A stretch of 64,000 bases of DNA from Ignavibacteriota bacterium (GTDB lineage: Bacteria; Bacteroidota; Ignavibacteria; UBA10030; CAVZMI01). Below, piece by piece: positions 44,581 to 60,211 of the stretch (the first letter of the stretch is position 1; every line of letters starts with the position of its first letter). Where the stretch lies: contig CAVZMI010000032.1 of NCBI GenBank assembly GCA_963776275.1, positions 32,001 through 96,000 of the forward strand, written 5' to 3'. The position numbers and the translations under genes were made by a program. A model generated the notes under the pieces. That model was not told the DNA's origin and searched no databases. It was given only the letters and a program-made list of their open reading frames with translations.

Positions 44581-45160
44581 GTGGCTGTTTTTACAGCCTT
44601 CGATCATTCACAATTCCGCCTTCACTTCCGCCTTCGTTCCAAAAAACGGAACTTCGGCGGACAAGTCGTTCCGGCGCCTGCCTGCTCGCCTCGCTTCGCT
44701 CGGCGAAGCGGGCCGGAGTGCCCGCCTTCAATGAAGCCTTCGGCAGGCGAAGGCCTCCGGCACGCAGGCCCGCCTTAGTCCGGAGGACGTCGGCGGGCAG
44801 GCAGGGACAGGTCGCAAATCACAATTCATACATACCACTCCTGACGGCGCTCGATACCGAAAAACAATTCTTCATTCACCGTGGTTTGACTCGCTCACCA
44901 TACTAAAGTACTGCTCACACCACTTACCTTCGACCCCTCGATGAACTCGGGGCAAGCAAGCTTTGGATTCCGTGGTGCTCGCTGCAGGCTCGAGCCAAGA
45001 CTCGGCAACCTGGCTGTTTATATAACCTTCGATCATTCACAATTCAAGAATCACAATTCACAATTTATTTGTAGCCTCGACTCGTTAACGAACCCCGGTA
45101 GGGGTGGTATATTTATAGAACCGGATTTCAGAAAAATACAAACCCTGTAAGTGTGACATG
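44581..45160. repeat. Cluster of nested short palindromic (REP-like) elements and heptamer-rich duplicated modules
   Basis: GC-rich nested hairpins 44616-44812; duplicated tggctgttt..ccttcgatcattcacaattc at ~44582 and ~45011; aacccc..ggggtg..atagaa doublet at 45090-45160. Confidence 0.7.
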
Positions 45161-45169
45161 TTAAAATTT

Positions 45170-46252
45170 CTATTTCAGCAAAACCATCCGTTTTGTTATC
45201 GTGACATTTCCGCTCTGGAGACGGCAGAAATAGACTCCACTCGACACCGATGCTGCATTCCAACGGATCACGTACGATCCCGGTTCGAGGAGAGCGTTCA
45301 GAAGTGTTTCGATTTCCTTCCCTGTGATATCAAAGAGTGTGATCGAGACACGATCATGTCTGGGCACATGGAATTTGATAGTGGTTCCGGGATTAAAAGG
45401 ATTTGGATAATTCTGCTCGAGGATGAATTGCGGCGGTGTTCCGTCCACATTCTGTTCAACTCCGAGTGTGGCTTCATATGCGATTGCCGCGTTGAATATC
45501 TCTTCAACAAGAAGCGGCGCTACATGAGCCGTTGCCGCATCATTCGGGTGGCTGTTGCCGGACTCGGTGCGGTACGAGTCGGGCAATTTGCCGTCCGAAC
45601 CGGCAAGATGGTGGAAGAAATCGAAAACATAGACGTTCTGCGGAAACTGTCCGAACGCCGGGTCGAAACCGCCGGCAAGCGTATCTTTTGCCCAGCGGCA
45701 GAATTGGTCGGACAGGAGTGCCGATTCATCGCTGGTCGATTCTCTCTCCTGAGGTGCGTTCGTCCATACGACGAAAAAGTTCGCCGGGTGGTTTTGCATG
45801 ACACGGATAAAATTGCGCCAGTGCCACTTGTAATTGAAGATCGTTTTCGATGCCGGATCGGTGGTATCCGAGGGCTCGCCCTCGCCCCACAGGTCGGATG
45901 ATGGAAAACACGATTTAATCATGATAATTTTGTTGGCGGCAAGGTACGGACCGATATCGGAGGTGGTATCGTTGCTATCGAAAATATCGTGCCACCTGGA
46001 CCATTCATTATCCCACGGATCCACCGGCCACCATTCTTCGTTGAGCGAGACTGCGAATGATCCGGTATATCCATGACTTGAATTATAAGCATCGATCTCC
46101 TGCGGAACGCTAGTTGCACTTCCATTCGGTCCCCAGATGCATCCGCCTGTCGAATGGTGCAGGAATATGCCGCTGCGGAATAGATTTTCTTGCGCGGATG
46201 TGGATGTGAGAAAGGAAATTGTCAGCAAGTAAAACAGTATGGTCTTGTGCAT
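45170..46252 (-). CDS. Secreted SGNH-like hypothetical protein with a T9SS domain
   Basis: GGAGGAG-ATG, signal peptide, IFLHHSTG, IMIKSCFP, NSHPN, YPNPFNP CTD. Confidence 0.75.
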   Translation of the reverse strand: MHKTILFYLLTISFLTSTSAQENLFRSGIFLHHSTGGCIWGPNGSATSVPQEIDAYNSSHGYTGSFAVSLNEEWWPVDPWDNEWSRWHDIFDSNDTTSDIGPYLAANKIIMIKSCFPSSDLWGEGEPSDTTDPASKTIFNYKWHWRNFIRVMQNHPANFFVVWTNAPQERESTSDESALLSDQFCRWAKDTLAGGFDPAFGQFPQNVYVFDFFHHLAGSDGKLPDSYRTESGNSHPNDAATAHVAPLLVEEIFNAAIAYEATLGVEQNVDGTPPQFILEQNYPNPFNPGTTIKFHVPRHDRVSITLFDITGKEIETLLNALLEPGSYVIRWNAASVSSGVYFCRLQSGNVTITKRMVLLK

Positions 46253-46431
46253 GTACTCCTCCATATGTAGTTTAGTTATAGTAGATTGCATGTGATAATT
46301 TCTTATATCTGCTCACGCACATAATCTACTACCTTTTTACGGCAAAGCCAACTCGACATAACCACCGCCAAAGGCAGTGGACTTCTGCTTCACACTAAAA
46401 TAAAGTGGGTCGGTTTTGTTGTGAATTTACC

Positions 46432-46460
46432 TTGACTTTAAATGTGGAATATAATAACAT
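46432..46460 (+). promoter_or_regulatory. sigma70-like promoter upstream of the cassette array (Pc-like)
   Basis: TTGACT-N17-TAACAT. Confidence 0.5.
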
Positions 46461-46476
46461 GTCAACATCCTACAAC

Positions 46477-46534
46477 TATGTTTCCCAAAGCCGTGTTTGG
46501 AATATTGGGTGGAGCAATATAGTTATCGTTAGCC
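46477..46534 (+). repeat. attI-like repeat copy 1 (58 bp, ends GTTAGCC)
   Basis: tatgtttcccaaagccgtgtttggaatattgggtggagcaatatagttatcGTTAGCC; the repeat is seen directly, the attI role is inferred. Confidence 0.8.
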
Positions 46535-46557
46535 ACTATAATTATTAAAGTTAAAAT

Positions 46558-47451
46558 ATGATTAATAGCATTTTAAAAGTATTAAAAAATATTCTAAAAT
46601 TTTATTTTGATATTTGTTTAATAATTATGTCGGTTATTATTATATCAATCATTTTTACCCATCTCTTTCACTCTTTATTATCTACGGGTAAATATCTAAA
46701 ATCCATCTTCATAATATGGATAATTCTTTTACCGATTTTAATAATTTTATATTATCTTATTACAAAATCTAAAAATTTTGATACGTTGGGTTTTAGAATT
46801 CTAAAATTAAATAATAATAAGAAATACGCCATTAGAAATTTTTTCGTTATTACTGCTTTCACAATATCATTGATATTTCTATTCCAATTATATTATGTAA
46901 ATGTCTATTTCGTACCTGTAATGTGTTCAGCAAAACCAAATTTATTTGAAGGTGATTATTTAATGGTCGATAGGTTTTGGGTAAGAAATAATTCTCCTTC
47001 TCGTGGTGAAGTAATTGGATTTAAAACTCAAAAAATGAATTTTGATCTTGTCAAAAGATGTGTAGCTTTTGGTGGAGATACAATAGAAATAAAGCAAGGA
47101 ATTGTATTAATCAACAACGAACCAGAAGGCAAACTGATATATTTGAAAAATGCATATGATTTCGTTGAACAGGAAGAATTGGAATATTATAAGATAATCA
47201 AAAAAAATGGTTTTGAGCATCTAGTTTGTTATCGACCAAATGGTTATTTTCGCAAGGAACATTTTGGTCCAATCGTTATCCCGGAAAATCATTATTTTCT
47301 TTTAGGGGATAATAGAGATAATAGTGGTGATAGTAGGTATTATGGCTCTTTTCCTAAAAATGAAATGTTTTGTAAAGCAGGATTTGTATATTTTTCAATT
47401 GACCCAATAACTAAAAAAATACGATGGTCAAGAATTGGGATAACAATTTAA
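46558..47451 (+). CDS. lepB: Signal peptidase I family protein (cassette 1, very AT-rich)
   Basis: S..PNLFEGD, LVKRCVAFGGD, YFLLGDNRDNSGDSRYYG, IRWSRIG. Confidence 0.85.
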   Translation: MINSILKVLKNILKFYFDICLIIMSVIIISIIFTHLFHSLLSTGKYLKSIFIIWIILLPILIILYYLITKSKNFDTLGFRILKLNNNKKYAIRNFFVITAFTISLIFLFQLYYVNVYFVPVMCSAKPNLFEGDYLMVDRFWVRNNSPSRGEVIGFKTQKMNFDLVKRCVAFGGDTIEIKQGIVLINNEPEGKLIYLKNAYDFVEQEELEYYKIIKKNGFEHLVCYRPNGYFRKEHFGPIVIPENHYFLLGDNRDNSGDSRYYGSFPKNEMFCKAGFVYFSIDPITKKIRWSRIGITI

Positions 47452-47468
47452 GTAATTATAAAATAGGC

Positions 47469-47545
47469 GGCTAACAAAAGTATTGATTTTTTGTGTCGGC
47501 GGGTAAGCGTGGTACATTAAGCATGGCTGGCAGAGATCTCGTGAA
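47469..47545 (+). other. Left part of a truncated attC of cassette 1
   Basis: GGCTAAC 18 nt after the stop, complementary to GTTAGCC at 46528; no cognate right arm; right boundary approximate. Confidence 0.6.
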
Positions 47546-47610
47546 AACTGTAAAGCAATCTACCATATTTCGATAGATATAGTTAAAATGATTTTTAATT
47601 TCGGGTGTCT

Positions 47611-47675
47611 TATGTGTTTCCCAAAGCCATGTTTGGAATATTAGGTGGATCGATATAAATTAATTATTGTTAGCC
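47611..47675 (+). repeat. attI-like repeat copy 2 (65 bp)
   Basis: tatgtgtttcccaaagccatgtttggaatattaggtggatcgatataaattaattattGTTAGCC. Confidence 0.8.
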
Positions 47676-47678
47676 GTC

Positions 47679-48404
47679 ATGTCAACTACACATAGTCCCG
47701 TAGAATGCGGGGATTGCGGGAGCGCAATCGATGTGAGCGCAGACCCTCCTGAGGGACGAGCCCCTTGCCCGAAATGCGGAAGCAAGAAACGCGCATACTA
47801 TGCCACAATGGCAAATGCACAACCAACAGACTACATGCTTGACCACTTCGTCGCGCACAAGCTTTCGCAACTCACTGAGTGCGGGGCGGCTGAACTGCCT
47901 GAGAAATCGTCTTGGTTGAATGCCTTCATTCTCAATAACCTCTTCATGGTCAACTTCCCCCTGAAGACACGCGCGTACCTGTTCAACTTCCTCAGGCGTG
48001 CTGAAGGAGCACTTTCGGGCTATCGCGAGGCGCGTCTCGCGCTGATTAACTACGTCAATACACCACGCAGCACCATCTACCCATATTTCAAGGCACTCTC
48101 GCTATTCGAGATCTGTGTCTCGCAGTGCTACCAGGGATACGAGCTCCTCGCTACTGCATCTGGTGAGAGGTTCTTCGAGCAGGGCGATGGAAGCGCCGCA
48201 GAACGGCTTCAAAAGCTCTATGTAGATTCCAAGCACATGGATTGCATGATTGATGGCGAAAAAGTACCATTAGAAGCAACAGTTCCCCTATGGATCACTA
48301 ATTCTGGACTTGAGAGCGGTAGGGCCGCGCTCTCATTTCTGGAACTGGAAGAGATACTGCTCAACATGTACACATTAGCGGAAAAGGTTTCTATGCTTGA
48401 CTAG
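47679..48404 (+). CDS. Hypothetical protein with an N-terminal zinc ribbon (cassette 2)
   Basis: ATG 3 nt after GTTAGCC; CGDC...CPKCG; visibly GC-richer than cassette 1. Confidence 0.7.
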   Translation: MSTTHSPVECGDCGSAIDVSADPPEGRAPCPKCGSKKRAYYATMANAQPTDYMLDHFVAHKLSQLTECGAAELPEKSSWLNAFILNNLFMVNFPLKTRAYLFNFLRRAEGALSGYREARLALINYVNTPRSTIYPYFKALSLFEICVSQCYQGYELLATASGERFFEQGDGSAAERLQKLYVDSKHMDCMIDGEKVPLEATVPLWITNSGLESGRAALSFLELEEILLNMYTLAEKVSMLD

Positions 48405-48517
48405 TACGCAGATCAAATGCGTGAGGTAATTCGATCACGCCATTACAGCTACAAGAGTGAAGAAGCCCATGTTCTCAACCTTGGCCCGGCCGGTGTCCGC
48501 AATCGAATCGATACCCT

Positions 48518-48575
48518 TATGTTTCCCAAAAACGTGTTTGGAATATTATGTGGATCAATATAATTACCGTTAGCC
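48518..48575 (+). repeat. attI-like repeat copy 3 (58 bp; 51/58 identical to copy 1)
   Basis: tatgtttcccaaaaacgtgtttggaatattatgtggatcaatataattaccGTTAGCC. Confidence 0.8.
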
Positions 48576-48600
48576 CGTTTGTCGCTATAACAAATCGGAG

Positions 48601-48795
48601 ATGCCCAATATGAGCATGCAATCAGTTAAAAAAAGCAAATGGCTATACCCTCTCCTTTATGTTGCCTTTTTCATTATCAGTATGTTACCGCCTTATACAG
48701 AAAAGCCATATGCTCCACAAGATACACAGAATGTGATTTGTTGTTATTTCTGTATATGCCTTCATATTACCGCGAATATACAAGAAGCGGGCTAA
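48601..48795 (+). CDS. Short membrane protein (cassette 3), possibly internally deleted
   Basis: One TM segment; the TAA stop lies inside the GGCTAAC inverse core, typical of cassettes. Confidence 0.55.
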   Translation: MPNMSMQSVKKSKWLYPLLYVAFFIISMLPPYTEKPYAPQDTQNVICCYFCICLHITANIQEAG

Positions 48796-48859
48796 CATTC
48801 GGCTCGACAGCGCATGAAAAAGCGTTCCGCTTTTTCATCGAGTCAGGCTTTTGTTAAGC
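48790..48859 (+). other. Complete attC site (70 bp)
   Basis: GGCTAAC...GTTAAGC with a perfect 11-bp central stem atgaaaaagcg/cgctttttcat; cgggctaac complements gttagcccg at 48569. Confidence 0.85.
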
Positions 48860-48899
48860 GCTCGCACATTAGGTTCGACCCATTAGAAGAGGACATACA

Positions 48900-49532
48900 A
48901 TGCGAAAAATCGAAATAGCGACAATAGGTGTTTTATTTGGTGCAGTACCCATCATCATTTGTTTTCTCGCAGGGTGGTGGATCAGCATCCCTCTTGTTCC
49001 TGAATCATGGATATTCCTATGCGCTCTAACGGGTTTTCTTGTTGGAGTACTTGTCGATGTTCTTTTTCTAAAAACGTGGGTTCGACATGCCTATTCGATG
49101 AAACCTATAGTCTGGATGATGATTTATCTGTTCTATTCCATTGGGATGTTCGGTTTCTTCATGGGAGTTCCGGTTTTCAATGTAGCGCTTGCCTTGCCTG
49201 CTGGTTTTTTCATCGGGGGATGGCTGGTTCATAGCGGTGCAGATTCCACACGCATGAAGAAGGTAGCGCGACATTGCGCTATATTCACTACAAGTGTCCT
49301 AGCACTTATTTGCATCGCATCAGCCGCAATTGCTCTGGCCAGTTCCTCCACAGCTTCCGATCTTCAAAAAATGTTCGGTCTTTCAGTTCAGGTTACACCC
49401 GCGATGATCATTGGCATCATCTTGGGCGGAGGCATCTTCATCCTTATTCTTCAATGGTGGCTCACATTCAAGTCTGTAGAGCGAGCGTATAGATATTTTT
49501 TTGCACGTGTCAGTCCGTCAACGTTCACATGA
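48900..49532 (+). CDS. Multi-TM hypothetical membrane protein (cassette 4)
   Basis: About 6 hydrophobic segments; GAGGA RBS; bounded by gttaagcgctcg and cgagcgctaac. Confidence 0.75.
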   Translation: MRKIEIATIGVLFGAVPIIICFLAGWWISIPLVPESWIFLCALTGFLVGVLVDVLFLKTWVRHAYSMKPIVWMMIYLFYSIGMFGFFMGVPVFNVALALPAGFFIGGWLVHSGADSTRMKKVARHCAIFTTSVLALICIASAAIALASSSTASDLQKMFGLSVQVTPAMIIGIILGGGIFILILQWWLTFKSVERAYRYFFARVSPSTFT

Positions 49533-49563
49533 AGTATATCATAGTTTGTATATAGTTACCGAG

Positions 49564-49580
49564 CGCTAACCAGCGGCTCC
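49564..49580 (+). other. Truncated attC of cassette 4 (left end only)
   Basis: CGCTAAC cagcggctc, then interrupted by cccac/gtggg palindromes. Confidence 0.65.
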
Positions 49581-49585
49581 TCGGT

Positions 49586-49654
49586 AAATCCCACTGGACC
49601 CCACAATCCCACATAAAACGTGGGACGAGTACAACACGAGAATGTGGGACGTAG
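49586..49654. repeat. Nested cccac...gtggg palindromic elements
   Basis: tcccactggaccccacaa[tcccacataaaacgtgggac]gag...tgtgggacgta; same family as 55584-55849. Confidence 0.65.
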
Positions 49655-49691
49655 TGCAACATTGCATGACAATTAATCGGAGATTAAAGGG

Positions 49692-50150
49692 ATGGAAATT
49701 AGAGATGCCATATTTAATGATCTTCCTTCAATATTAAAGCTACAAAAGTTGTGTTATCGGGAAAATGCGGAACGATATAACGACTATCAAATACCACCAA
49801 TGATTCAGACAATTAATGATTTAGAAGATGAATTTAATTATAATGTAATATTAAAAGCTGAAGATCAATCTAAAATAATTGGCAGTCTAAGAGCATATGA
49901 AAAAAATGGTATTTGTTACATCGGGAGAGTTATTGTTCATCCCGACTACCAAAACAAAGGAATTGGAACAAAATTGATGATAGAGATTGAAAGAAGATTC
50001 CCCAATGTTTCAAAATATGAATTATTTACTGGATATAAAGACGAAAAAAATATTTACTTCTATGGTAAATTGGGCTATAAGATTTTTAAGGAAGAAAACC
50101 TTGGCTATAAGATAAAACTTGTTTTCCTGGAAAAAATAAGAATAGGATGA
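49692..50150 (+). CDS. GNAT family acetyltransferase
   Basis: IGRVIVHPDYQNKGIG, N..FY.KLGY. Confidence 0.9.
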   Translation: MEIRDAIFNDLPSILKLQKLCYRENAERYNDYQIPPMIQTINDLEDEFNYNVILKAEDQSKIIGSLRAYEKNGICYIGRVIVHPDYQNKGIGTKLMIEIERRFPNVSKYELFTGYKDEKNIYFYGKLGYKIFKEENLGYKIKLVFLEKIRIG

Positions 50151-50154
50151 AATC

Positions 50155-50742
50155 ATGAAACAGATTGTCACAAAGGAAGCCCTCAAGGATTTGTCGTCTG
50201 ATAATCCGAGAATAAAATACAAACGGGTCAAAAATCTCCTGACGATTGCCGGGAAGAACCCGGAACAACTCTACCCACATCTCCCCTTCTTTGTCAAACT
50301 TCTCAAGAGCGAGAACAACATTTTAAAGTGGATGGCAATCGACATCATTGGATCTCTATCCAGGGTCGATACGGCGAAGAGAATCGATGGATTGCTGACG
50401 ACTCTCTTTGGATTCCTTCGAGCCGGGAAAATGATTACTGCGAACCATGCAATCGCCGCCCTGTCTGCCATCGCTTCAGCTAAACCATATTATCAGAAGA
50501 AAGTGACACAGGAGCTTTTAAAAGTCGAGCAATATACGTACGACACAGATGAGTGTCATAATATAGCCCTCGGGAAAGTCATTGTGGAAATAAATTCGTA
50601 TTTTAAAGAACTGAAGCAGAATGATCAGGTCGTGGAATTCGTCAGCAGGCAGATAAATAATTCGCGTGCCGCAACAAGGAAAAAAGCTGAGAATTTCTTA
50701 AAAATTCATAAAAACCAACCAACGAAGGAGAATAAACAATGA
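50155..50742 (+). CDS. HEAT/ARM-like helical hypothetical protein
   Basis: 195-aa helical ORF, co-oriented in an operon-like run. Confidence 0.6.
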   Translation: MKQIVTKEALKDLSSDNPRIKYKRVKNLLTIAGKNPEQLYPHLPFFVKLLKSENNILKWMAIDIIGSLSRVDTAKRIDGLLTTLFGFLRAGKMITANHAIAALSAIASAKPYYQKKVTQELLKVEQYTYDTDECHNIALGKVIVEINSYFKELKQNDQVVEFVSRQINNSRAATRKKAENFLKIHKNQPTKENKQ

Positions 50743-51123
50743 AATCGATTAAATTGGTTTTCCTCTACGGATTTCTCATCTGGCTAATACCCTTCATCGT
50801 ATCGTTCATTATATTCCCGATTCATGAGAATGACCGTACGCTGTTCGAATCTATCATGCCTGTCGTATTGACTATTAGTACAGTTCTGTTTTCAATTCTT
50901 TATTTAAAAAAGGTCGAAACTAAATTTTTAAAAGAGGGCATTCTCCTCGGCGTTATCTGGTTTCTGATAAGCTTCATTATCGACCAGTTTTTGTTCAGCG
51001 CAGGTCCCCATGAAAATGAGTTTTATCGACTATATAAAAGATATCGGACTTACTTATTTGATCATTCCCACCGTCACAATCGGATCCGGTTATCTCCTTG
51101 TAATTAGACAGAAACCTCAATAA
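50739..51123 (+). CDS. Small membrane protein; frameshift in a C run near 51007-51010
   Basis: GFLIWLIPF, LFESIM; continues as GPMKMSFIDYIKDIGLTYLIIP in another frame. Confidence 0.7.
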
Positions 51124-51132
51124 AATTATATA

Positions 51133-51657
51133 ATGCAGATTGAAAAATTACTATCCGGCGGCGATCTGCGTTCGATCGGGAAAAGCAATTCTGTTGTTTT
51201 GAAAATAAAAAATCAAAACGACTTTGACGAACTTTTTCAATGCTTGTTTCATAAAGACAGAATTGTTGTAATGCGCGCGGCCGATGCAATTGAAAAAATA
51301 ACAATAAAGGATCCTCTGTATCTGGCAAGGCATAAGAAAAAAATACTGGAATTGTGCAACACCGCTGACGATAAAGAACTTCAATGGCATCTCGCTCTCA
51401 TGATTCCAAGGCTGCATCTGACCTATAAAGAACTTGCAAGAATGTGGAATTTACTATCACGCTGGGCATCGGATAATAGGGAGAGCAGGATTATGCAGGT
51501 GAATTCGATTCAGGGTCTTTTTGAATTATCAAGAGTCCACACTAAATTGATCACCGACTTCAATATGATTCTTTCCAACATTGAACGGCAAAATATACCC
51601 TCCATCGCGGCAAGAATAAGAAAATTGAAGAAGTCGTTCGGTCGAATCAATCCATGA
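51133..51657 (+). CDS. Conserved hypothetical helical-repeat protein
   Basis: LSGGDLRSIG, MRAADAIEK, ELQWHLA. Confidence 0.65.
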   Translation: MQIEKLLSGGDLRSIGKSNSVVLKIKNQNDFDELFQCLFHKDRIVVMRAADAIEKITIKDPLYLARHKKKILELCNTADDKELQWHLALMIPRLHLTYKELARMWNLLSRWASDNRESRIMQVNSIQGLFELSRVHTKLITDFNMILSNIERQNIPSIAARIRKLKKSFGRINP

Positions 51658-51812
51658 CATCTTCCGTATAATCGATATGGCATGCGACGATCAAATATCG
51701 TATATTATTGAAAATAATCTTCAATAATAGAAAAGTAATTTTCCCCTTTGCGCTTTTACTTTTTCCTAAATAACGTCATTATACCATTGTCTCACAGTCG
51801 GAACATATCGGA

Positions 51813-52955
51813 ATGAAACGATTCATACTTTTAATCTTGCTATTTGTTGCTGTTGGCAGCACTTCATGTAAGGAAGACACAGCCGGTTCCGATGAGAACC
51901 AGCCACCGGCAAATTACAACTCGGCACTTGCAACGCTTCTCGATTCGCTCAGGAATGTATATAATCTTCCCGCCCTCGCCGGTGCCATTGTAACAGATAC
52001 GGGTGTGATCGATGCGCAGGCAGTCGGCTGCAGACGATACGCCGGGCCGGCAAATGTAACTGTAAACGACCAATTCCACCTCGGTTCGAATACCAAAGCC
52101 ATCACTGCAGTCCTCTTGGGAATTCTTGTCGACAGCACTCTTCTCGGCTGGGATTCGACATTGCCGTCGATATTTCCAGAGTATGCAGAAACAATGCGAA
52201 CTGAATACCGCTCTGTCACAGTACGCGATATCCTTTCTCACAGCGCAGGATTCATCCGTGATCCATCCCTGACGCTTACTACACAAACACTAAGGGATCA
52301 GCGTGCGGAAGTCGTCGCTTGGGCTCTTAAACAACCCCCCGCAAACGTGCGCGGACAATATCTCTACAGTAATCTCGGGTACATTATTGCCGGAGCTATC
52401 GCGGAAAAGTTGACGAATCGTCCGTACGAGGATCTTCTCATGGAACGGGTTCTCCAGCCTCTCGGAATAACCACGGCTGGTTTCGGCCCCATGGGAACGG
52501 TCGGACTCGAAGATCAACCGCTTCAGCATACACCTCAGTACATACCTCTTCAACCCGAAGCGGCCGCAGATAACCCTCCAATATATAATTCTGCGGGGAG
52601 GCTTCATATGTCGGTTGGTGACTGGGGCCGGTACATACAATGGGTACTGGCATGTGAGGCTGGACATCCCACGCTGCTTCGTCCTGAAACCGCACACACT
52701 CTGACTACGGGGGTAGTACCGATGCCCGGAGAGGGTTCGTATGCATTCGGGTGGGTAATTGTCGACCGGCAGTGGGCCGGCGGGCGCACACTCACACATA
52801 CAGGGAGCAATGGGCTGAACTTCGCGGTCGCATGGCTCGCCCCGAATCGAAGATTCGCGGTCCTTGCTGAAACGAATATCTGCACCAGCACGACACCCGG
52901 CTCGATGGACGCCGTCGTCGGCCGGATGATTATGTTCCATTTGAACGGACACTAG
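51813..52955 (+). CDS. Serine hydrolase (beta-lactamase/AmpC-like family) lipoprotein
   Basis: Lipobox TSC, SNTK (SxxK), YSN, HTG. Confidence 0.9.
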   Translation: MKRFILLILLFVAVGSTSCKEDTAGSDENQPPANYNSALATLLDSLRNVYNLPALAGAIVTDTGVIDAQAVGCRRYAGPANVTVNDQFHLGSNTKAITAVLLGILVDSTLLGWDSTLPSIFPEYAETMRTEYRSVTVRDILSHSAGFIRDPSLTLTTQTLRDQRAEVVAWALKQPPANVRGQYLYSNLGYIIAGAIAEKLTNRPYEDLLMERVLQPLGITTAGFGPMGTVGLEDQPLQHTPQYIPLQPEAAADNPPIYNSAGRLHMSVGDWGRYIQWVLACEAGHPTLLRPETAHTLTTGVVPMPGEGSYAFGWVIVDRQWAGGRTLTHTGSNGLNFAVAWLAPNRRFAVLAETNICTSTTPGSMDAVVGRMIMFHLNGH

Positions 52956-52961
52956 GACACG

Positions 52962-53768
52962 ATGAGCAGCGAAAACTTTTCAACGATAGCCCAACGATAT
53001 AGAGAGACTTCGATAATCCAGAAGTCTGCAGCAGAAACATTATTTTCATTACTGGATCTCAAGGATGGTGAAAGTGTTTTGGATATCGGCTGCGGAACCG
53101 GAAACCTGACAAAAAAGATTTTCGATATCACTCATGGAAGAACCGTCGGCATCGATCCTTCAAAAGGTATGATCGATGAATCGATAAAATCTTACGGTAA
53201 TATCATGGAATTCCGGATGATGAGGGCAGAGGATCTTGACTTTAAAAATGAATTTGATGCGGTCTTCTGCAATTCTACCTTTCAATGGATTCGGGATGTC
53301 GATAAAGTCACAGCCAATTTCTATCGCGCACTCAAAAAGGAAGGACGTATAGGAATTCAGGCTCCGGGGAGAAGGCAATATTGTCCGAATTTCATCGCGG
53401 CTGTTTCAGAAGTACTTAAAAATCCCGGCACAAGAGAGTATTTTCGGAATTTTAAACATCCCTGGTTTTTTCGCGATACCGCCGACGAGTACTCACAATA
53501 CTTCCTCAGACAGGGATTTCACATTGCTTTGAGTGAAATACAAACAATGGAAACATACCACAGTCCTGAAGAGATATATGAGATATTTGCATCGGGTGCG
53601 ATTGCAGGATACCTGAATAAAGAGTATTACCCGGATGGATTCGACGAGTCATATAAAAAAGAATTTGAACGAATCGTGAAAGACTCATTCTATAAGCAGG
53701 CCGGCAGTGATGGAAAGGTAAAATTAGTATTTAATAGAATATTTTTAATCGCCGAAAAAACTGCATGA
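52962..53768 (+). CDS. Class I SAM-dependent methyltransferase
   Basis: VLDIGCGTG, FDAVFCN..FQW. Confidence 0.9.
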   Translation: MSSENFSTIAQRYRETSIIQKSAAETLFSLLDLKDGESVLDIGCGTGNLTKKIFDITHGRTVGIDPSKGMIDESIKSYGNIMEFRMMRAEDLDFKNEFDAVFCNSTFQWIRDVDKVTANFYRALKKEGRIGIQAPGRRQYCPNFIAAVSEVLKNPGTREYFRNFKHPWFFRDTADEYSQYFLRQGFHIALSEIQTMETYHSPEEIYEIFASGAIAGYLNKEYYPDGFDESYKKEFERIVKDSFYKQAGSDGKVKLVFNRIFLIAEKTA

Positions 53769-53848
53769 AAAGAATATTTGTCGCTATAGTTATATCTGCA
53801 CTATCCGTTGAAAAATAACATAATACATTTTATCAACAGGATGGCAAA

Positions 53849-55003
53849 ATGAAACTATCGAAAGCCATGATAGAACTATTCATCGTCGTTTCGCTACTTA
53901 TCACAGCCGCTGCATTATGCTTTGGACAGCAAAAGAATATCAATTCTTCCGGCTTCGAAATTCACAGAGGCGTCAACCTGAGCCATTGGCTGTCGCAATG
54001 TTTAGGGTGGTCGCCCAGGGAGACTTTTATCACAGAGAAGGATATACAATTTATCGACAGCATGGGCTACGACCATGTGCGAATACCTATCGATGAAACC
54101 GAGATGTGGACAAGCGACGGAAAGCCGATAGAAGAATCATTCACATATCTCACCCGCTGCCTCGACTGGTGCGCGAAACACAATTTAAGGGCTATTGTCG
54201 ATCTTCATATCCTGAAATCGCATAATTTCAACGCCGATAATGAAGGCGGGGAAAATATATTATGGACAGACTCTTCAGCACAGCACAATTTCATCAAACT
54301 CTGGAATGACATTTCGGATTACCTGAAAAATTATCCTGTCAACATGGTTGCCTATGAGCTTATGAACGAGGCGGTTGCGCCTAACCATGAAGACTGGAAC
54401 AGGTTGATTGCCAAAGCTGTAAAGGTGATCCGCATACTTGAACCCAATCGTGTTCTTATCATCGGATCGAATAGATGGCAAAGACCCGAATTTTTCCCGC
54501 AGTTAAAAGTGCCTGAGAATGATAAAAATATTATCCTCAGTCTGCACACATATTCGCCAATTCATTTTACACACAATCGGGCCGACTGGACATCCTTCAA
54601 ATTATACACCGGGCCTGCACACTATCCCGGCCAGGTTGTTGCCGACGCCGATTATAAAAAATATGTCGACACAAATAATTTAGCTCTTGTGCATGGAATG
54701 GACGGATCGGTCCAGGTATTCGATAAAAAGAGGCTTACAGAAGAACTGCTGCCTGCTGTACAGAAAGCCAAGGAACTCAATCTTCAGCTTTACTGCGGTG
54801 AATTTGGATGCCTTCCTCATGTCGACAGAACTGAAAGGTTGAAATACTACAACGATATCGTCTCGGCATTCGAAGAGAACAATATCGCCTGGTGCAACTG
54901 GGAATATAAAGGCGACTTTGGAATATATTCTTTTGACTTTGAGAAAAAAGTCTCCCTCTCACCCGATTTCGGATTGATCAACATTCTGATGCAAAAGAAA
55001 TAA
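53849..55003 (+). CDS. GH5 family endoglucanase-like hydrolase
   Basis: RGVNLSHWLSQ, DHVRIPID, YELMNE, YCGEFG. Confidence 0.9.
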   Translation: MKLSKAMIELFIVVSLLITAAALCFGQQKNINSSGFEIHRGVNLSHWLSQCLGWSPRETFITEKDIQFIDSMGYDHVRIPIDETEMWTSDGKPIEESFTYLTRCLDWCAKHNLRAIVDLHILKSHNFNADNEGGENILWTDSSAQHNFIKLWNDISDYLKNYPVNMVAYELMNEAVAPNHEDWNRLIAKAVKVIRILEPNRVLIIGSNRWQRPEFFPQLKVPENDKNIILSLHTYSPIHFTHNRADWTSFKLYTGPAHYPGQVVADADYKKYVDTNNLALVHGMDGSVQVFDKKRLTEELLPAVQKAKELNLQLYCGEFGCLPHVDRTERLKYYNDIVSAFEENNIAWCNWEYKGDFGIYSFDFEKKVSLSPDFGLINILMQKK

Positions 55004-55051
55004 TAAACTGCCCCACACCTCACCTGCCGGCTATAAATAGGAGAAAATCTG

Positions 55052-55459
55052 ATGAATGAAAATTTAAACTCTGCACAGGAAGATTACACGGGTGGTGGGC
55101 GGCAAGATCATGAACCTCCGGTCGTCATCGCTTCATATGGCTGGCGCTATCATCATCTCGGTATACCAACCGATATCCCCCGCCCCGGCGAGCGATTTCT
55201 TGAGCAATTCAAGATGTATGTGTCGGGTTTCGAAACAAGTCCTTACGGCATCGAATGGATGCGATTCGAGCAGGATAGCCCTGTTTCTGAACTGATCAGA
55301 AATGTTCCCCACTTAGCCTTTGAAGTAGACGATCTCGATTTTGCAATAAAGGGTAAATATATACTAACTGAAGCAACCTCTCTCTCCAATGGCATAAGGG
55401 TTGCCATGATCATCCATGACGGCGCCCCTATCGAACTCCTTGAATTTCGAAAGGGCTGA
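55052..55459 (+). CDS. VOC/glyoxalase-like protein
   Basis: YHHLGIPT, PHLAFEVDDL, GAPIELLEF. Confidence 0.8.
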   Translation: MNENLNSAQEDYTGGGRQDHEPPVVIASYGWRYHHLGIPTDIPRPGERFLEQFKMYVSGFETSPYGIEWMRFEQDSPVSELIRNVPHLAFEVDDLDFAIKGKYILTEATSLSNGIRVAMIIHDGAPIELLEFRKG

Positions 55460-55582
55460 CAATCATTGCTTTTACACACAAGAATAATTAATTTTTATAG
55501 ATCGGGACGTTTGAAAAACTCTGTTTATATATTTTCTATGGACACACTTGAGCCGGCGGTCTGAAACAACCTGTATTTTCTG

Positions 55583-55849
55583 AATTGCCACGAGCTCGGG
55601 CTTTTACGCCCCACGCTTTCGTGCTTTTCACGTCCCACGATCTTTGTGGGACCAGTGGGGTTAACTCGTGGGAAATAAGAGGAGAAAAATGAGGGGTTTT
55701 AACCCCACATTAAATTGATGTAGGGCTAAAGCCCGCAAAGATTTTTTAGATTTAAAAATCCACGACCTGACCCCACTGGAAAGCGTGGGGCGTAAATCCC
55801 ACAGGAAACGTGGGACGGAAAAAACCCGAAGCACGAGGTCGTGGCCATT
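55583..55849. repeat. REPIN/MITE-like inverted-repeat element with nested palindromic insertions
   Basis: Termini aattgccacgagctc / gaggtcgtggccatt; internal tttacgccccacgctttc / gaaagcgtggggcgtaaa; central gggttttaaccc..gggctaaagccc. Confidence 0.75.
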
Positions 55850-55928
55850 CATTCGGCATTAATTTTTCTCCGACCGGATATGTTATTCAGAGGTCTCAGC
55901 ATTTAAAAGCCATGGAGAGATTCAATCA

Positions 55929-56306
55929 TTGGCTAAGGCACTTACAATAAGGGAAGTACCTTGCAACGGCTGCACGCTCTGCTGCCAGGGTGATGCCATC
56001 AAGCTTGAAGAAGAAGACCGGGCGCTGGATTATAAGACGGAATCCCATCCGTACATCCCAGGAGCCCTCATGATTGCACATAAACCGAACGGTGAATGTT
56101 TCTACTTAAATGAACAAGGCTGCAGCATCCACAGCTGGGCGCCTTCATTGTGCCGTAGCGCTGATTGCCGCAGTCTCGCCATTAAATTGAATTATGATGC
56201 AGTACGTTCACTCCATATGATGGGCAGGCTGGATTTCCGGGTATGGCTGCAGGGACGCAGACTTATCGAGGCAATGACCGCTCATGGCGGAAAGGATAAT
56301 CAGTAA
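55929..56306 (+). CDS. YkgJ/CxxCxxCC cysteine-cluster protein
   Basis: CNGCTLCC, C.YL...GCSIH...P..CR. Confidence 0.8.
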   Translation: MAKALTIREVPCNGCTLCCQGDAIKLEEEDRALDYKTESHPYIPGALMIAHKPNGECFYLNEQGCSIHSWAPSLCRSADCRSLAIKLNYDAVRSLHMMGRLDFRVWLQGRRLIEAMTAHGGKDNQ

Positions 56307-56312
56307 AATAAA

Positions 56313-57029
56313 ATGCTTAAAATCAGCGATATTGCCAAGATGATCGACCATTCAATTCTTCATCCTACATTTACAGATGATGATTTAAAGAAGAACTGTG
56401 ATATAGCAAAAAAATATCATGTTGCCACAGTATGTGTCAAGCCCTATCATACTCGGATGGCGGCTGAATTACTTAAAGGCTCCGATGTGGGGGTATGTGC
56501 AGTAATCGGTTTCCCGCATGGAAACAGTTCGACTGATATTAAAAATGCAGAAACACTTCAGGTAATTAACGACGGCGCAACAGAAGTGGATATGGTGGTG
56601 AATATCGGAAAAGTAATGCAGGGTGACTGGTCATATATCGACAACGAACTTAAAACAATTAATGATACCTGCCGTAAAAACAGGGCACTGTTAAAAGTCA
56701 TTTTTGAGACGGACTTCGTATCGCGCGACAAGGATAAAATAAGACTATGCGAACTTTGCAACAAACATGATATTGCTTTTGTGAAGACATCGACCGGTTA
56801 CGGATTTGTCAGGAATAACAATGGAAAATATTCGTATGCCGGAGCGACCGAACACGATGTAAAGCTTATGCGTAAACATTGCGCTCCCGGAGTAAAGATA
56901 AAAGCTGCCGGTGGTGTACGGACACTTGATCAATTATTGAAATATCGCGAGCTGGGTGTGACTCGAATAGGTGCCTCGGCAACGGAAGCTATTATGGAAG
57001 AAGCGAAAAAACGTTTCGAATCGAAATAG
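56313..57029 (+). CDS. deoC: Deoxyribose-phosphate aldolase
   Basis: IDHSILHP, VIGFPHG, EVDMV.N, FVKTSTG, KAAGGVR, RIGASAT. Confidence 0.95.
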   Translation: MLKISDIAKMIDHSILHPTFTDDDLKKNCDIAKKYHVATVCVKPYHTRMAAELLKGSDVGVCAVIGFPHGNSSTDIKNAETLQVINDGATEVDMVVNIGKVMQGDWSYIDNELKTINDTCRKNRALLKVIFETDFVSRDKDKIRLCELCNKHDIAFVKTSTGYGFVRNNNGKYSYAGATEHDVKLMRKHCAPGVKIKAAGGVRTLDQLLKYRELGVTRIGASATEAIMEEAKKRFESK

Positions 57030-57039
57030 AGGTTGTTCA

Positions 57040-57483
57040 GTGAATATCGAAATTATCGAAGCAAAAAAAGAAGATTTGCCCTCAATCTTAAAGCTCTATG
57101 CCGTTGAAGACATTGATAACGGCGATATCCTATCAATCGGAAAAGCAGAAGTAATATTTAATAGAATGCAATCGTATCCGAACTATAAAATCTATATTGC
57201 AAAATATAATGGGAAAACGGTGGGCACATTTTCACTCTCGATAATGGATAACATAGCACATCTCGGTAAATCTTCCGGTCTGGTTGAAGATGTGGTGGTT
57301 GATAAAACCATGAGATCAAAAGGAATTGGGAAGATAATGATGGAATATGCCATGAAAATATGTAAAGAAAGTAACTGCTATAAAATGAGTCTATCCAGTA
57401 ATTTGAAAAGAGAAAGAGCACATAGTTTTTACGAGAAATTAGGATTTGAAAAACATGGGTTCAGTTTTTTAATTAAAATATGA
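57040..57483 (+). CDS. GNAT family acetyltransferase
   Basis: GTG start after GAGG; VEDVVVD...RSKGIG, AHSFYEKLGF. Confidence 0.9.
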   Translation: MNIEIIEAKKEDLPSILKLYAVEDIDNGDILSIGKAEVIFNRMQSYPNYKIYIAKYNGKTVGTFSLSIMDNIAHLGKSSGLVEDVVVDKTMRSKGIGKIMMEYAMKICKESNCYKMSLSSNLKRERAHSFYEKLGFEKHGFSFLIKI

Positions 57484-57589
57484 TTTCGCAGGGCGAGAAG
57501 AACTTCCGAAAATAATCAGCTGTTCTCAAAGCCCGCATAACGGTTGCAGAATATTTTTGTATGATCATAAATGATATAATAGATTTTTA

Positions 57590-58396
57590 ATGAATACCGA
57601 TTATGTCCATGGATATACAGAGCGAGAGTCGATCAGATTGGAAGATCAAGCCAATTGCCTGAGCGAGCTTCTCCACCACGATTCTATTTTTCCTAAAGGC
57701 TCGATAATACTCGAGGCCGGCTGCGGAACCGGAGCTCAGACAAAGATCATTGCCCCCAAAAATCCTGACTCAAAATTCATATCAATTGATATTTCCGAAG
57801 ATTCATTGCGTAAAGCCGATTCTCTCATAAAATCACTTAATATCAATAATGTCGAGTTTCAAACCGGCAACATTTTTAATCTGAAATTTGAAGAAGAATC
57901 CTTTGACCATGTTTTCGTTTGTTTTGTACTTGAACATCTTCCCAATCCTGTCGGAGCGTTACGAGCATTAAAAAAAGTATTGAAAAAAGGGGGATCCATT
58001 ACGGTCATTGAAGGAGATCACGGCTCTGCCTATTTTTATCCTTACAGCCGGTATGCGCAAGAAGCGATTGATGCACTGGTAAAATTGCAGTCGACAAACG
58101 GCGGAAACGCCTCAATAGGCAGAGAACTTTACCCGCTTTTAAGCATCTCGAATTTTAAAAACTGCAAGGTTTCTCCCAGAATGGTTTATGTCGATTCGAG
58201 TAGACCTGAACTTGTTGAGGGCTTTACAAAAAATACTTTTACGGCTATGATTGAAGGAATAAGAAATAAAGCTGTCAATAGTTGTCTCATCGATAAAAGC
58301 TCCATTGAAAAAGGTATTCAGGATTTGTATCGAACGACTCAGATTGACGGTGTTTTTTGTTACACATTTTTCAAGGGAATTGGGTATAATATTTAA
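57590..58396 (+). CDS. Class I SAM-dependent methyltransferase
   Basis: YVHGY..RE..RL.DQA, LEAGCGTGAQT, FDHVFVCFVLEHL. Confidence 0.9.
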   Translation: MNTDYVHGYTERESIRLEDQANCLSELLHHDSIFPKGSIILEAGCGTGAQTKIIAPKNPDSKFISIDISEDSLRKADSLIKSLNINNVEFQTGNIFNLKFEEESFDHVFVCFVLEHLPNPVGALRALKKVLKKGGSITVIEGDHGSAYFYPYSRYAQEAIDALVKLQSTNGGNASIGRELYPLLSISNFKNCKVSPRMVYVDSSRPELVEGFTKNTFTAMIEGIRNKAVNSCLIDKSSIEKGIQDLYRTTQIDGVFCYTFFKGIGYNI

Positions 58397-58447
58397 AAAA
58401 GCAGTCGATGCAAGGAACAAATCCCTCGGGAGAATAATAAAAGAAAA

Positions 58448-60211
58448 ATGAAATCATCGTTGGCATTATTGAGTTTGCTTTCACTGCTTGCCTGTTCGAT
58501 TAATCCGCATGTCTGTGCACAGAACGATATACAAAAGACTTACTGTGATAAAGCGTATAAAGAATATCATTATGGTGTACCGTTTTTGCATCTGGAAGGG
58601 ACCGATTATGAAGTAGGTTACCAGTACGGTTATCTCCTTAAAGATGAGTTACATGCCGTGTACGAGGGATTCAACGATTTCAAAGAAAACATGATGGAAA
58701 GGGAAATAAAATACCTGCCCTGGTATCAAAGATTTTTCGCTAATCTGTTTGGCTCGTTAATTTTAAAACACAAAATAAACAAATATGTCGATCAACTTCC
58801 GGATGATATCCATAATCAATTGAAAGGCATGGCTGACGGTGCTGATATGCCGGTCAGATTTTTTTATGAAGTCAATCTCTTCGGCGATTATTTATCTCAC
58901 GGATGTTCTTCATTCGTCATAAAGAAAGGAAGCATAATCTATCACGCCCGCAACCTCGATACGCCGCTCAATCTGATCGCCAGATATCCTGTCATTGTGT
59001 GTTACAGCATTAACGGACGACAAAAATATACAGATATAGGATTTATTTCCGGATTGATGATTTCCACCGGCTTCAACGAATCAGGAATTTCTTTTTCAGA
59101 AGATTCAAATAATAATCCGATGGCTTTCGATAAGAATAATTCGAACCTGCTGGTTGAACGAAACAGAATTATAACCCGGGCTCACAATCTAAAAGAGGCC
59201 GATTCATTAGTCAATGCGTTACTTATTCCCGAGGGATATATTTTTACACTCTCGGACAGTGAAGAAAAACAGGCAAATGTCTACGATGTAATCGGAAAAA
59301 TAAAAGCTGCCACTCCGGTAGACGGTTATCAATATGTGGCAAACAGAACAATATCGCACGTCCTGGGTAAAAAAAGCGAATCGATTTATGCTGGTAATTT
59401 CCATGATATCTCAAGGGAAATAAAATTTTCAGAATTAATCGATACAACTAAGACAAATATCGTCGACGAGGCAATAGATATCTTAAGTAACATCCATTTC
59501 TATCATTACACCGACTCGATAGAAGTGTGGATCGATGCAATCAATAATTATCAAACGATTCAATCGGCAATTTTTGATCTGGCCGATTCGGCCGTGTATT
59601 TCGCATACAATACACACTATGCTGCATGGAGCAGATGGTTGAAGTATAACTATATTACAGGTGAGGTTGGTGTCTATAGAGAAGCCGATGACAAATTGAA
59701 CCGAGCGGATATCTTGAAATTTGTCGATATCTGTAAAGAGTACCAGGCAGCAGACTGGCGCGACAGCACGATGGTCGATTCACTGGTTCGCCACATCATC
59801 GATTCACAAATTGAAAATTACTTTTGCCTTGATGTATTATGTCAGCAATATCTATATCGTTTTAAAGCACCGGATATAACAATCGCTCATGCCGACAAAA
59901 TGATCAAGAAATATCCAGATGTAGTCACGGGTTATTATTACAAAGGTCTCGCTCTCGAAGAACAGAAACAATACGGCAATGCAATCACTCAATATATGAA
60001 AGCATTCAATTGTACTATATGCTGTGAATATTACCTTGCCGGTGTCTGCGAACATCTCGCTTATTCGAATAATTTTCTGGGAAACAAAGAAATTGCCAAA
60101 GAATATGCAGTAAAAGCATTGGCAATCCATAATCAGTATTGGATTCCGGATCATTTGAAAGAAAAGATTGAGAAGCTTGAAAAGATTGCGGCTATAGATT
60201 CAAAACGCTAA
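58448..60211 (+). CDS. C45 family (Ntn) autoproteolytic acyltransferase/peptidase with C-terminal TPRs
   Basis: L.GT.YEVGYQYG, GCSSFV, HARNLD, GFNESGI; TPR-like tail. Confidence 0.8.
   Translation: MKSSLALLSLLSLLACSINPHVCAQNDIQKTYCDKAYKEYHYGVPFLHLEGTDYEVGYQYGYLLKDELHAVYEGFNDFKENMMEREIKYLPWYQRFFANLFGSLILKHKINKYVDQLPDDIHNQLKGMADGADMPVRFFYEVNLFGDYLSHGCSSFVIKKGSIIYHARNLDTPLNLIARYPVIVCYSINGRQKYTDIGFISGLMISTGFNESGISFSEDSNNNPMAFDKNNSNLLVERNRIITRAHNLKEADSLVNALLIPEGYIFTLSDSEEKQANVYDVIGKIKAATPVDGYQYVANRTISHVLGKKSESIYAGNFHDISREIKFSELIDTTKTNIVDEAIDILSNIHFYHYTDSIEVWIDAINNYQTIQSAIFDLADSAVYFAYNTHYAAWSRWLKYNYITGEVGVYREADDKLNRADILKFVDICKEYQAADWRDSTMVDSLVRHIIDSQIENYFCLDVLCQQYLYRFKAPDITIAHADKMIKKYPDVVTGYYYKGLALEEQKQYGNAITQYMKAFNCTICCEYYLAGVCEHLAYSNNFLGNKEIAKEYAVKALAIHNQYWIPDHLKEKIEKLEKIAAIDSKR

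Follow-up and report, generated by a model that had tools for sequence, protein, structure and literature searches.

Repeat copies and cassettes at the locus

We analysed a 64,000-nt stretch of an Ignavibacteriota bacterium genome (assembly GCA_963776275.1, here G000; contig CAVZMI010000032.1, forward-strand positions 32,001 to 96,000), referred to below as the window, in which an earlier reading of the letters alone (the sequence-only reading) had singled out an integron-like cassette array. The assembly is of metagenome type and comprises 38 contigs and 3.7 Mb, with 96% completeness and 5.3% contamination. Integrons carry one attI site beside the integrase gene intI and a promoter (Pc) that drives the cassettes; the latter are set apart by attC sites, which form imperfect hairpins (R''-L''...L'-R'). 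The attI site recombines with attC through the integrase IntI, which is bound at the core and at accessory repeats. Positions 46426-49691 of the window hold three direct copies of a repeat of 58-63 bp, four gene cassettes and remnants of an intI gene, all on the forward strand.

The repeat copies, found as one family by repeat search, lie at 46477-46534 (copy 1), 47613-47675 (copy 2, which carries a 5-nt insertion) and 48518-48575 (copy 3). Copies 1 and 3 are 88% identical without gaps, and gapped alignment of all pairs gives 86-88%, with differences at 7-8 of 56 positions plus the 5-nt indel. A search for the 28-nt repeat core allowing up to 3 mismatches returned 3 matches in the window, while none of 100 shuffled versions yielded any. 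The heptamer GTTAGCC occurs exactly three times in the 64 kb (46528, 47669 and 48569), each time as the end of a repeat copy, placing the putative crossovers at G46528|TT, G47669|TT and G48569|TT. Likeness among the copies breaks off after this motif and a different open reading frame (ORF) follows each one, starting 23, 3 and 25 nt beyond copies 1, 2 and 3 (at 46558, 47679 and 48601, respectively; 47679 is the true ATG of ORF2, judged by its homologues). The repeat with its unrelated downstream ORFs, as described in the sequence-only reading, is thus confirmed. The inverse motif GGCTAAC is present twice in the window, in both cases just 3' of a cassette ORF: at 47469 it lies 18 nt past the stop codon of a signal peptidase gene, and at 48790 it overlaps the stop codon of a 64-aa ORF.

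No copy of the repeat shows an attC-like fold on either strand (z between 0.06 and 1.66), which bears out the earlier statement that it is not a full attC palindrome. Four GTT(T/A) boxes are visible per copy (GTTTCC, GTTTGG, GTTATC/ATTACC and GTTAGC), and by analogy with attI1 we take these to be putative IntI binding sites. The repeat also contains TTGGAA, a 15-nt spacer and TATAGT, TATAAT or TATAAA, and it has a small, imperfect palindrome as well (TTCCCAAA..TTTGGAA), which might serve as an operator. On these features it could be read as a mere promoter or operator module placed before three genes and unrelated to recombination. However, a promoter scan called no sigma-70-type promoter with a 16-18 nt spacer inside any copy, leaving the earlier label of 'promoter-like' without support. 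Moreover, every copy ends at the integron crossover motif, the genes concerned are cassettes with complementary ends and starts, and the core of the repeat is the sequence found next to intI in relatives (see below), so that a module of this kind is very improbable. The two readings are compatible, as an attI site may also carry a promoter; promoters of the TTGGAA, 15 nt, TATAAT-like form inside the attI copies are possible, though the scan called none. A scan of the whole window at the Rfam gathering thresholds gave no matches.

Cassette 1 (46529-47475) encodes a signal peptidase I of the S26 family (ORF 46558-47451; PF10502, E 4e-30) and has a GC content of 26%. It ends in an R'' core, GGCTAAC (47469-47475), that is complementary to its own start. 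The following 137 nt (47476-47612) are the degenerate rest of its attC and show no attC fold (z 0.1-0.6); pairing the R'' with a downstream GTTAAAA, as a 119-nt attC, likewise gave no fold. Cassette 2 (47670-48404; GC 52%) consists of ORF2 (47679-48404), whose product belongs to a widespread family of uncharacterised Zn-ribbon proteins. It has 193 homologues, which reach 68% identity and lie mostly on short metagenome contigs. Neither an attC nor an inverse core remains in cassette 2, as judged by a fold scan and motif search. The sequence-only reading had held that the attC of cassette 1 is cut short and that cassette 2 has none, and both statements stand.

Cassette 3 (48570-48853) comprises a 64-aa membrane-like ORF (48601-48795) and an intact attC (48790-48859) with R'' GGCTAAC and R' GTTAAGC; its start, GTTAGCCCG, and end, CGGGCTAAC, are complementary over 9 of 9 nt. 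This attC, already proposed as the one complete site, folds canonically (z -2.8, and -4.6 to -5.6 in a second fold test). It was the sole convincing result for the window from our scan, for which we used a crude R''/R' fold script and not IntegronFinder; the other five results were weak and inside coding sequence, one of them within ORF2. Cassette 4 (48854-49570) encodes a 210-aa membrane protein (ORF 48900-49532), and its end, CGAGCGCTAAC, is complementary to its own start, GTTAAGCGCTCG, except for one missing T. The motif positions thus confirm that cassettes 1, 3 and 4 end in the complement of their starts, which is probably the trace of former circles. Across the array, attC is intact in cassette 3, truncated with R'' kept in cassettes 1 and 4, and gone in cassette 2.

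The GC contents of cassettes 1-4 are 26, 52, 41 and 45%, against 44% for the window. The gene of cassette 4 has DNA homologues of 84% (L105, G095:C33) and 79% identity (L106, G094:C108) in two other families of the order, whereas flanking genes reach 64-74% within the same family. This GC spread, and a cassette match that exceeds the identity of the flanking genes, suggest separate foreign origins for the cassettes. The copy in G095 is followed by GAGCGCCTTAAC, an R''-like core, and has no recognisable GTT start. PADLOC defence models matched none of the four cassette proteins.

Integrase remnants and attI sites in relatives

Directly 5' of copy 3, BLASTP revealed 37 codons (48408-48518, forward strand) in which an N-terminal piece of IntI, DQMREVIRSRHYSYKSEEA, is joined in frame to its last 17 residues, HVLNLGPAGVRNRIDTL. 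The first piece aligns with residues 36-57 of a same-order IntI (E 8e-8) and the second with residues 331-348, the C-terminal end (E 1e-6); the repeat begins where the gene ends. Judged by these alignments, 48408-48518 is an integron-integrase gene with nearly its entire interior deleted, and it was overlooked when the window was earlier said to hold no integrase. An order-specific IntI hidden Markov model (HMM) run over the six frames of 46300-49700 found the N-terminal piece alone (E 4e-4), and over the whole genome it found no further intI remnant.

A second trace adjoins copy 1. The first codons of a dead intI (ATG TCA ACA TC..., about 7 codons, 46459-46476) are common to this window and to the same-genus genome G001, in which the same start continues, past one stop codon, into LLEQMRE..RSRHHSHRT, the N-terminus of IntI. 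Just upstream of this former start lies a sigma-70-like promoter, TTTACC, 18 nt, TATAAT (46426-46455), which matches the consensus at 10 of 12 positions and is predicted to be functional. DNA alignment with shuffled controls gave no significant intI remnant upstream of copy 1 or 2 (z -1.2 to 0.4). The MSTT start of ORF2 resembles the MSTS start of intI; we regard this as coincidence, the homologues of ORF2 likewise beginning MST(T/A).

Among 251 genomes of the order that we sampled, 90 encode an IntI above the curated TIGR02249 cut-off. Of the 20 loci returned, 18 were read for the IntI ORF and the sequence 3' of it (L069 and L075 are not included). In five of the 18 (L073, L074, L076, L078 and L080, all of genus g47), GGTGGATAA(A/T)TATAATAATT|GTTAGG lies 169-187 nt beyond the intI stop codon, and L077 has a divergent version of this core 212 nt past the stop. 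The g47 block, GGTGGAT..TATAAT..GTTAGG, aligns column by column with the 3' half of each of the three repeat copies and also with a remnant in G001. Beyond the GTT of the g47 loci lie attC arrays on the same strand, with sites that fold strongly and resemble each other; G188 has 7 of them within 5.2 kb, and G100 and G160 have one or more each. Over the 18 loci, a crude scan of short flanks placed attC-like sites downstream of intI in 4 and upstream in 3, with none detected in 11, and both intI orientations seem to occur in the order. G000 alone among the 251 genomes has more than one copy of the core.

Two further sites were noted during this comparison. In L072 (G002:C5, 540-1200), an intact intI is immediately preceded by some 650 nt of irregular tandem units, each with GAAATGAC/GCAATGAC. 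In L096 (G165:C171, about 1500-1530, minus strand), a solitary GTGGATAAATATAATGAATGTTAGCC, near-identical to the g47-type attI core, lies in the gap between two ordinary genes of divergent orientation. Neither intI nor attC is near it, and it may be an orphan attI or else a promoter-like match arising by chance.

G001 is collinear with the window, with flanks 94-96% identical, and has about 580 bp in place of positions 46473-49565. This stretch runs from the shared ATGTCAACATC through one stop codon, LLEQMREAKRSRHHSHRTKE and GTGATAAATATAATTTAGTTTACC to a different ORF of 156 aa, and so comprises a dead intI start with the remains of an IntI N-terminus, then the attI core's 3' half, and a single gene that differs from those of the window. 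A comparison of the locus among strains had been proposed with the sequence-only reading as a test of cassette turnover; in the same-genus G001, the same dead intI and half an attI are accompanied by a different cassette. The difference between the two genomes extends from the intI start region on the left to a conserved left end of an attC on the right. Because shared sequence bounds it on both sides, it could equally be a replacement by homologous recombination. It appears that, around a dead integrase, sister genomes can come to differ through remodelling and replacement of their cassette arrays.

The synteny with G001, the intI remnant at copy 3 and the homology to the attI of relatives together lead us to identify the repeat as the attI site of an intI-attI-cassettes integron. 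Copy 3 adjoins the intI remnant, ends in a crossover that fits GTTRRRY (GTTAGCC) and lacks an attC-like fold, all as expected of attI; the presence of three copies is the unusual feature of the locus. We conclude that 46426-49691 is in all probability a decayed chromosomal integron of the same-orientation type with its attI triplicated. The claim of the sequence-only reading that the repeat is a multiplied attI-type site heading captured cassettes is strengthened accordingly, both by the homology of the 3' half to the attI beside intact intI genes and by the intI sequences abutting copies 1 and 3. A genome search with the 58-mer had been suggested along with it: the 3.7-Mb genome holds three copies of the repeat, all at this locus. 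Taken as a whole, the earlier interpretation is partly supported.

A number of observations weigh against this identification. The homology to relatives is confined to the 3' half of the repeat, about 25 nt, and the intact relatives with the core come from a different family of the order. G002, a genome of the same family that has an intact IntI, carries other sequence before its GTTAGG, where the contig ends. The core pattern matches 9 times outside G000 in the 251 genomes and its reversed control 18 times. With the control outnumbering the real matches, the pattern alone is weak, and only the 4 of 9 located after intI count. The 5' half of the repeat (TGTTTCCCAAA-N4-TGTTTGGAATATT) has no counterpart in the attI of relatives or in the genome and metagenome collections searched. 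Allowing up to 3 mismatches, this half matched 20 times in 15 of 100 relatives, against one control match; none of the 20 then runs into an attI core, and we read them as chance. An exact 20-base pattern likewise hit 7 loci on genome contigs and 17 loci on metagenome contigs, which share 24-34 of 58 positions with the repeat, 20 of them forced by the pattern, and which are not relatives. No intI remnant could be demonstrated 5' of copy 2 (z -0.7 to 0.4 against shuffles). Finally, the units are known in this order from a single assembly.

The last point raises the prospect of an assembly chimera, in which three strain variants of one attI-cassette locus were joined through their shared repeat. 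A metagenome-type assembly of 38 contigs with 5.3% contamination could produce such a join, and cassette arrays are hypervariable between strains. The repeat copies nevertheless differ at 7-8 of 56 positions and by the 5-nt indel, and each is linked to its neighbours by unique sequence, such as the partial attC that precedes copy 2 and the intI remnant that precedes copy 3. On both flanks of the array, the 120-kb contig is collinear with G001. Given copies that have diverged and are linked by unique sequence, we consider a chimera very unlikely.

Integron integrases are tyrosine recombinases with an extra I2 segment. No IntI was found in the 38-contig assembly, either above the TIGR02249 cut-off (265 bits) or with the order-specific HMM, and hence no candidate for the service in trans that the sequence-only reading had supposed. 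The best two recombinases score 237 bits (C23:235651-236607, minus strand) and 220 bits (C22:9467-10333, plus strand). Both have 'integron integrase' as their best NCBIfam match, lack profile positions 181-234 and fall far under the XerC/XerD cut-offs. They lie far from any attC and neither adjoins a cassette array; since similar proteins are present in most genomes of the order, we take them to be housekeeping Xer-type enzymes. An intI gene could have escaped assembly, as the genome is 96% complete and two of its cassette arrays begin at contig ends, and this too counts against a locus without its integrase.

The proposed history of the array is as follows. The attI would be a double-stranded site at which the integrase inserted circular cassettes at G|TT. 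Each copy would have been used as such an insertion point, given that homology stops exactly at the crossover and a different foreign gene comes next, and we infer that each was once a working site. The integrase gene would then have been destroyed, leaving the start region and the 37-codon fusion of N- and C-terminal pieces. With no IntI found in the genome, the array appears to be frozen, and most likely now represents four fixed accessory genes that are transcribed from the former intI promoter.

A long modular attC family and the flanking sequence

The end of cassette 4 runs into a different kind of site. Positions 49571-49691 (forward strand) are the left part of a long modular attC, made up of CA, GCGGCTCC and REP-like hairpins; the right arm is absent and the fold is strong (z -4.8). 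These ~120 nt are orthologous in G001, and the end of cassette 4, R'' followed by CA and GCGGCTCC, corresponds to the left end of a long attC family present elsewhere in G000. With the right arm missing in both genomes, the truncation of the cassette 4 attC is probably old. A second trace of the family is found after cassette 1, where about 47497-47560 corresponds to its middle module, with an internal GTTAAGC changed to ATTAAGC. Short stretches close to the starts of contigs C4 and C30 match this segment, as do pieces in G001 and G002.

Members of the family in G000 are about 300-420 nt long and have the form R''-CA-GCGGCTCC ... hairpin modules ... GGAGCCGC-CATCC-GTTAGG. The 8-mers GCGGCTCC and GGAGCCGC are mutually complementary, as expected of L'' and L'. 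A cassette on C4 that is framed by two long attC sites starts with GTTAGGCGGC and ends with CCGCCCAAC. The 12-mer CCATCCGTTAGG, searched with up to one mismatch, has 25 matches in the genome, of which 10 carry a 30-nt right-arm module and 6 a GCTTAGC-type arm; the remaining 9 look fortuitous. The 16 cluster on C30, C23, C4 and C6. In all, at least 16 right arms are spread over five contigs, some arrayed and some solitary (C4:1-1400; C30:1-11900; C23:133400-150800 and 334400-337800; C6:149900-150700; C25:34050), with 6 sites in 11.4 kb on C30. None of the 16 right arms that we read resembles the repeat. It had been recognised from the start that the attI interpretation would fall if the repeat proved to be the right arm of a long lineage-specific attC. 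The genome has a family of this kind, and the right arm of that family is unrelated to the repeat.

Several other features flank the array. REP-like hairpin repeats (CCCAC..GTGGG or CTCAC..GTGAG) occur at 49572-49690, 55460-55928 and about 44620-45430 of the window. In addition to these, G000 has 5 partial copies and G001 has many; in G001 the stretch following the cassette is enlarged to about 250 nt. A 35-nt direct repeat, 91% identical between its copies at 44582-44616 and 45011-45045 (429 nt apart), lies upstream of a gene for a protein sorted by the type IX secretion system. Downstream, 49692-60211 holds 12 same-strand genes with GC contents of 29-54%, which are conserved in G001 and scattered in the same-family G002. 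They include genes for a GNAT acetyltransferase, a HEAT-repeat protein, a beta-lactamase-family hydrolase, two methyltransferases, a GH5 cellulase and a DeoC-type aldolase. No attC traces were seen in this region, which may represent either an ancient cassette array that has become fully fixed or simply a stretch of ordinary operons.

Multiplication of attI and known systems

Our preferred, if tentative, account of the triplication is that the entire intI-attI platform was duplicated, with turnover of cassettes at each copy and subsequent deletion of each intI; we put this at somewhat short of an even chance. Such a route requires several deletions and no unusual chemistry, and by analogy it has a precedent in In104 of SGI1, discussed below.

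Alternatively, the copies could have been made by the integrase itself. Circles carrying a cassette plus attI, or intI plus attI, would have been inserted by attI x attI exchange or by exchange between attI and a secondary site, with attI taking the place of attC. The likeness of copies 1 and 2 to copy 3 sets in at one shared point (..TATG|TTTCCC), within about 5 nt of an internal GTT, and two independent random deletions would not be expected to share an end point. Similarly, the intI pieces are complementary, with codons 1-7 before copy 1 and the sequence from about codon 8 before copy 3, as if 1.9 kb (copies 1 and 2 with their cassettes) had been inserted into the dead gene. The copies are also more alike (86-88%) than neutral sites of G000 and G001 (74-82%), which suggests multiplication after the two lineages split, though a sample of 58 nt is too small for dating. 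Recombination of attI with attI is, as far as the consulted part of the literature goes, a known low-frequency reaction of IntI1. On the other side, no free unit exists elsewhere: the three copies of the repeat in the genome are joined by none in the collections searched. The junction between the partial attC of cassette 1 and copy 2 is not an expected product of IntI, and the stretch before copy 2 yielded no intI remnant. A variant in which the platform itself moved as a cassette was rejected, as no attC lies directly upstream of intI in g47-type loci (three relatives, with 1.1-1.3 kb of upstream sequence). On balance, an integrase-made origin of the copies appears unlikely.

A more general form of this idea is that the attI of same-orientation integrons is not a fixed single landmark, and can be copied along with a cassette and then act as the recombination site of that cassette, by exchange with another attI or with a secondary site. 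We consider this distinctly improbable. If true, it would imply arrays in which each captured gene has its own docking site and expression signal, and which could persist or remain exchangeable after the resident integrase is lost.

Under platform duplication, too, the locus would indicate that the docking site of an integron can itself be duplicated and reused, with each attI copy having taken up a different foreign gene. The three diverged natural variants of attI offer a substrate for probing what attI requires in the little-studied same-orientation integrons. They come from an environmental order that is rich in integrons (IntI in 90 of 251 genomes), has both architectures and possesses an unusually long, modular attC family.

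Among known systems, CALIN elements consist of at least two attC sites close together without an integrase. The locus resembles these and intI-pseudogene remnants in being a cassette cluster that has no functional integrase and lies beside an intI pseudogene. It has one intact and two partial attC sites in 3.2 kb, and differs in that a single intact attC is left and the units are separated by attI copies and not by attC sites. In the orientation of its parts, the locus is akin to the integrons of Treponema, which, in the passages we draw on, are described as atypical in that intI is transcribed towards attI and the cassettes (PMC3607928). This Treponema denticola-type arrangement is confirmed in the homologous intact g47 elements, whereas here intI is reduced to a start region and 37 codons and attI is present three times.

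We found no natural array with three attI copies in the main texts of open-access papers and preprints; what these offered on multiple or duplicated attI was In104 and recombination assays with two attI substrates. Within that literature, the closest described case is In104 of SGI1, which, according to the portions of the sources used, has two attI1 sites, each with its own cassette, arising from duplication of part of intI1 and the conserved segments (PMC7056807, PMC7598458). On that description it provides a precedent for attI being multiplied along with a partial intI. The same portions present In104 as a clinical class 1 integron of divergent orientation, located on a mobile island and with a working intI1, whose attI sites are separated by resistance genes and copies of the 3'-conserved segment. 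The present locus has instead three diverged copies and no working integrase, and belongs to another integron lineage on an environmental chromosome. It is not a new kind of system: by function and descent it is an integron, one that departs from the complete form in retaining only the start region and a 37-codon fusion of its intI and in carrying three attI copies in place of one.

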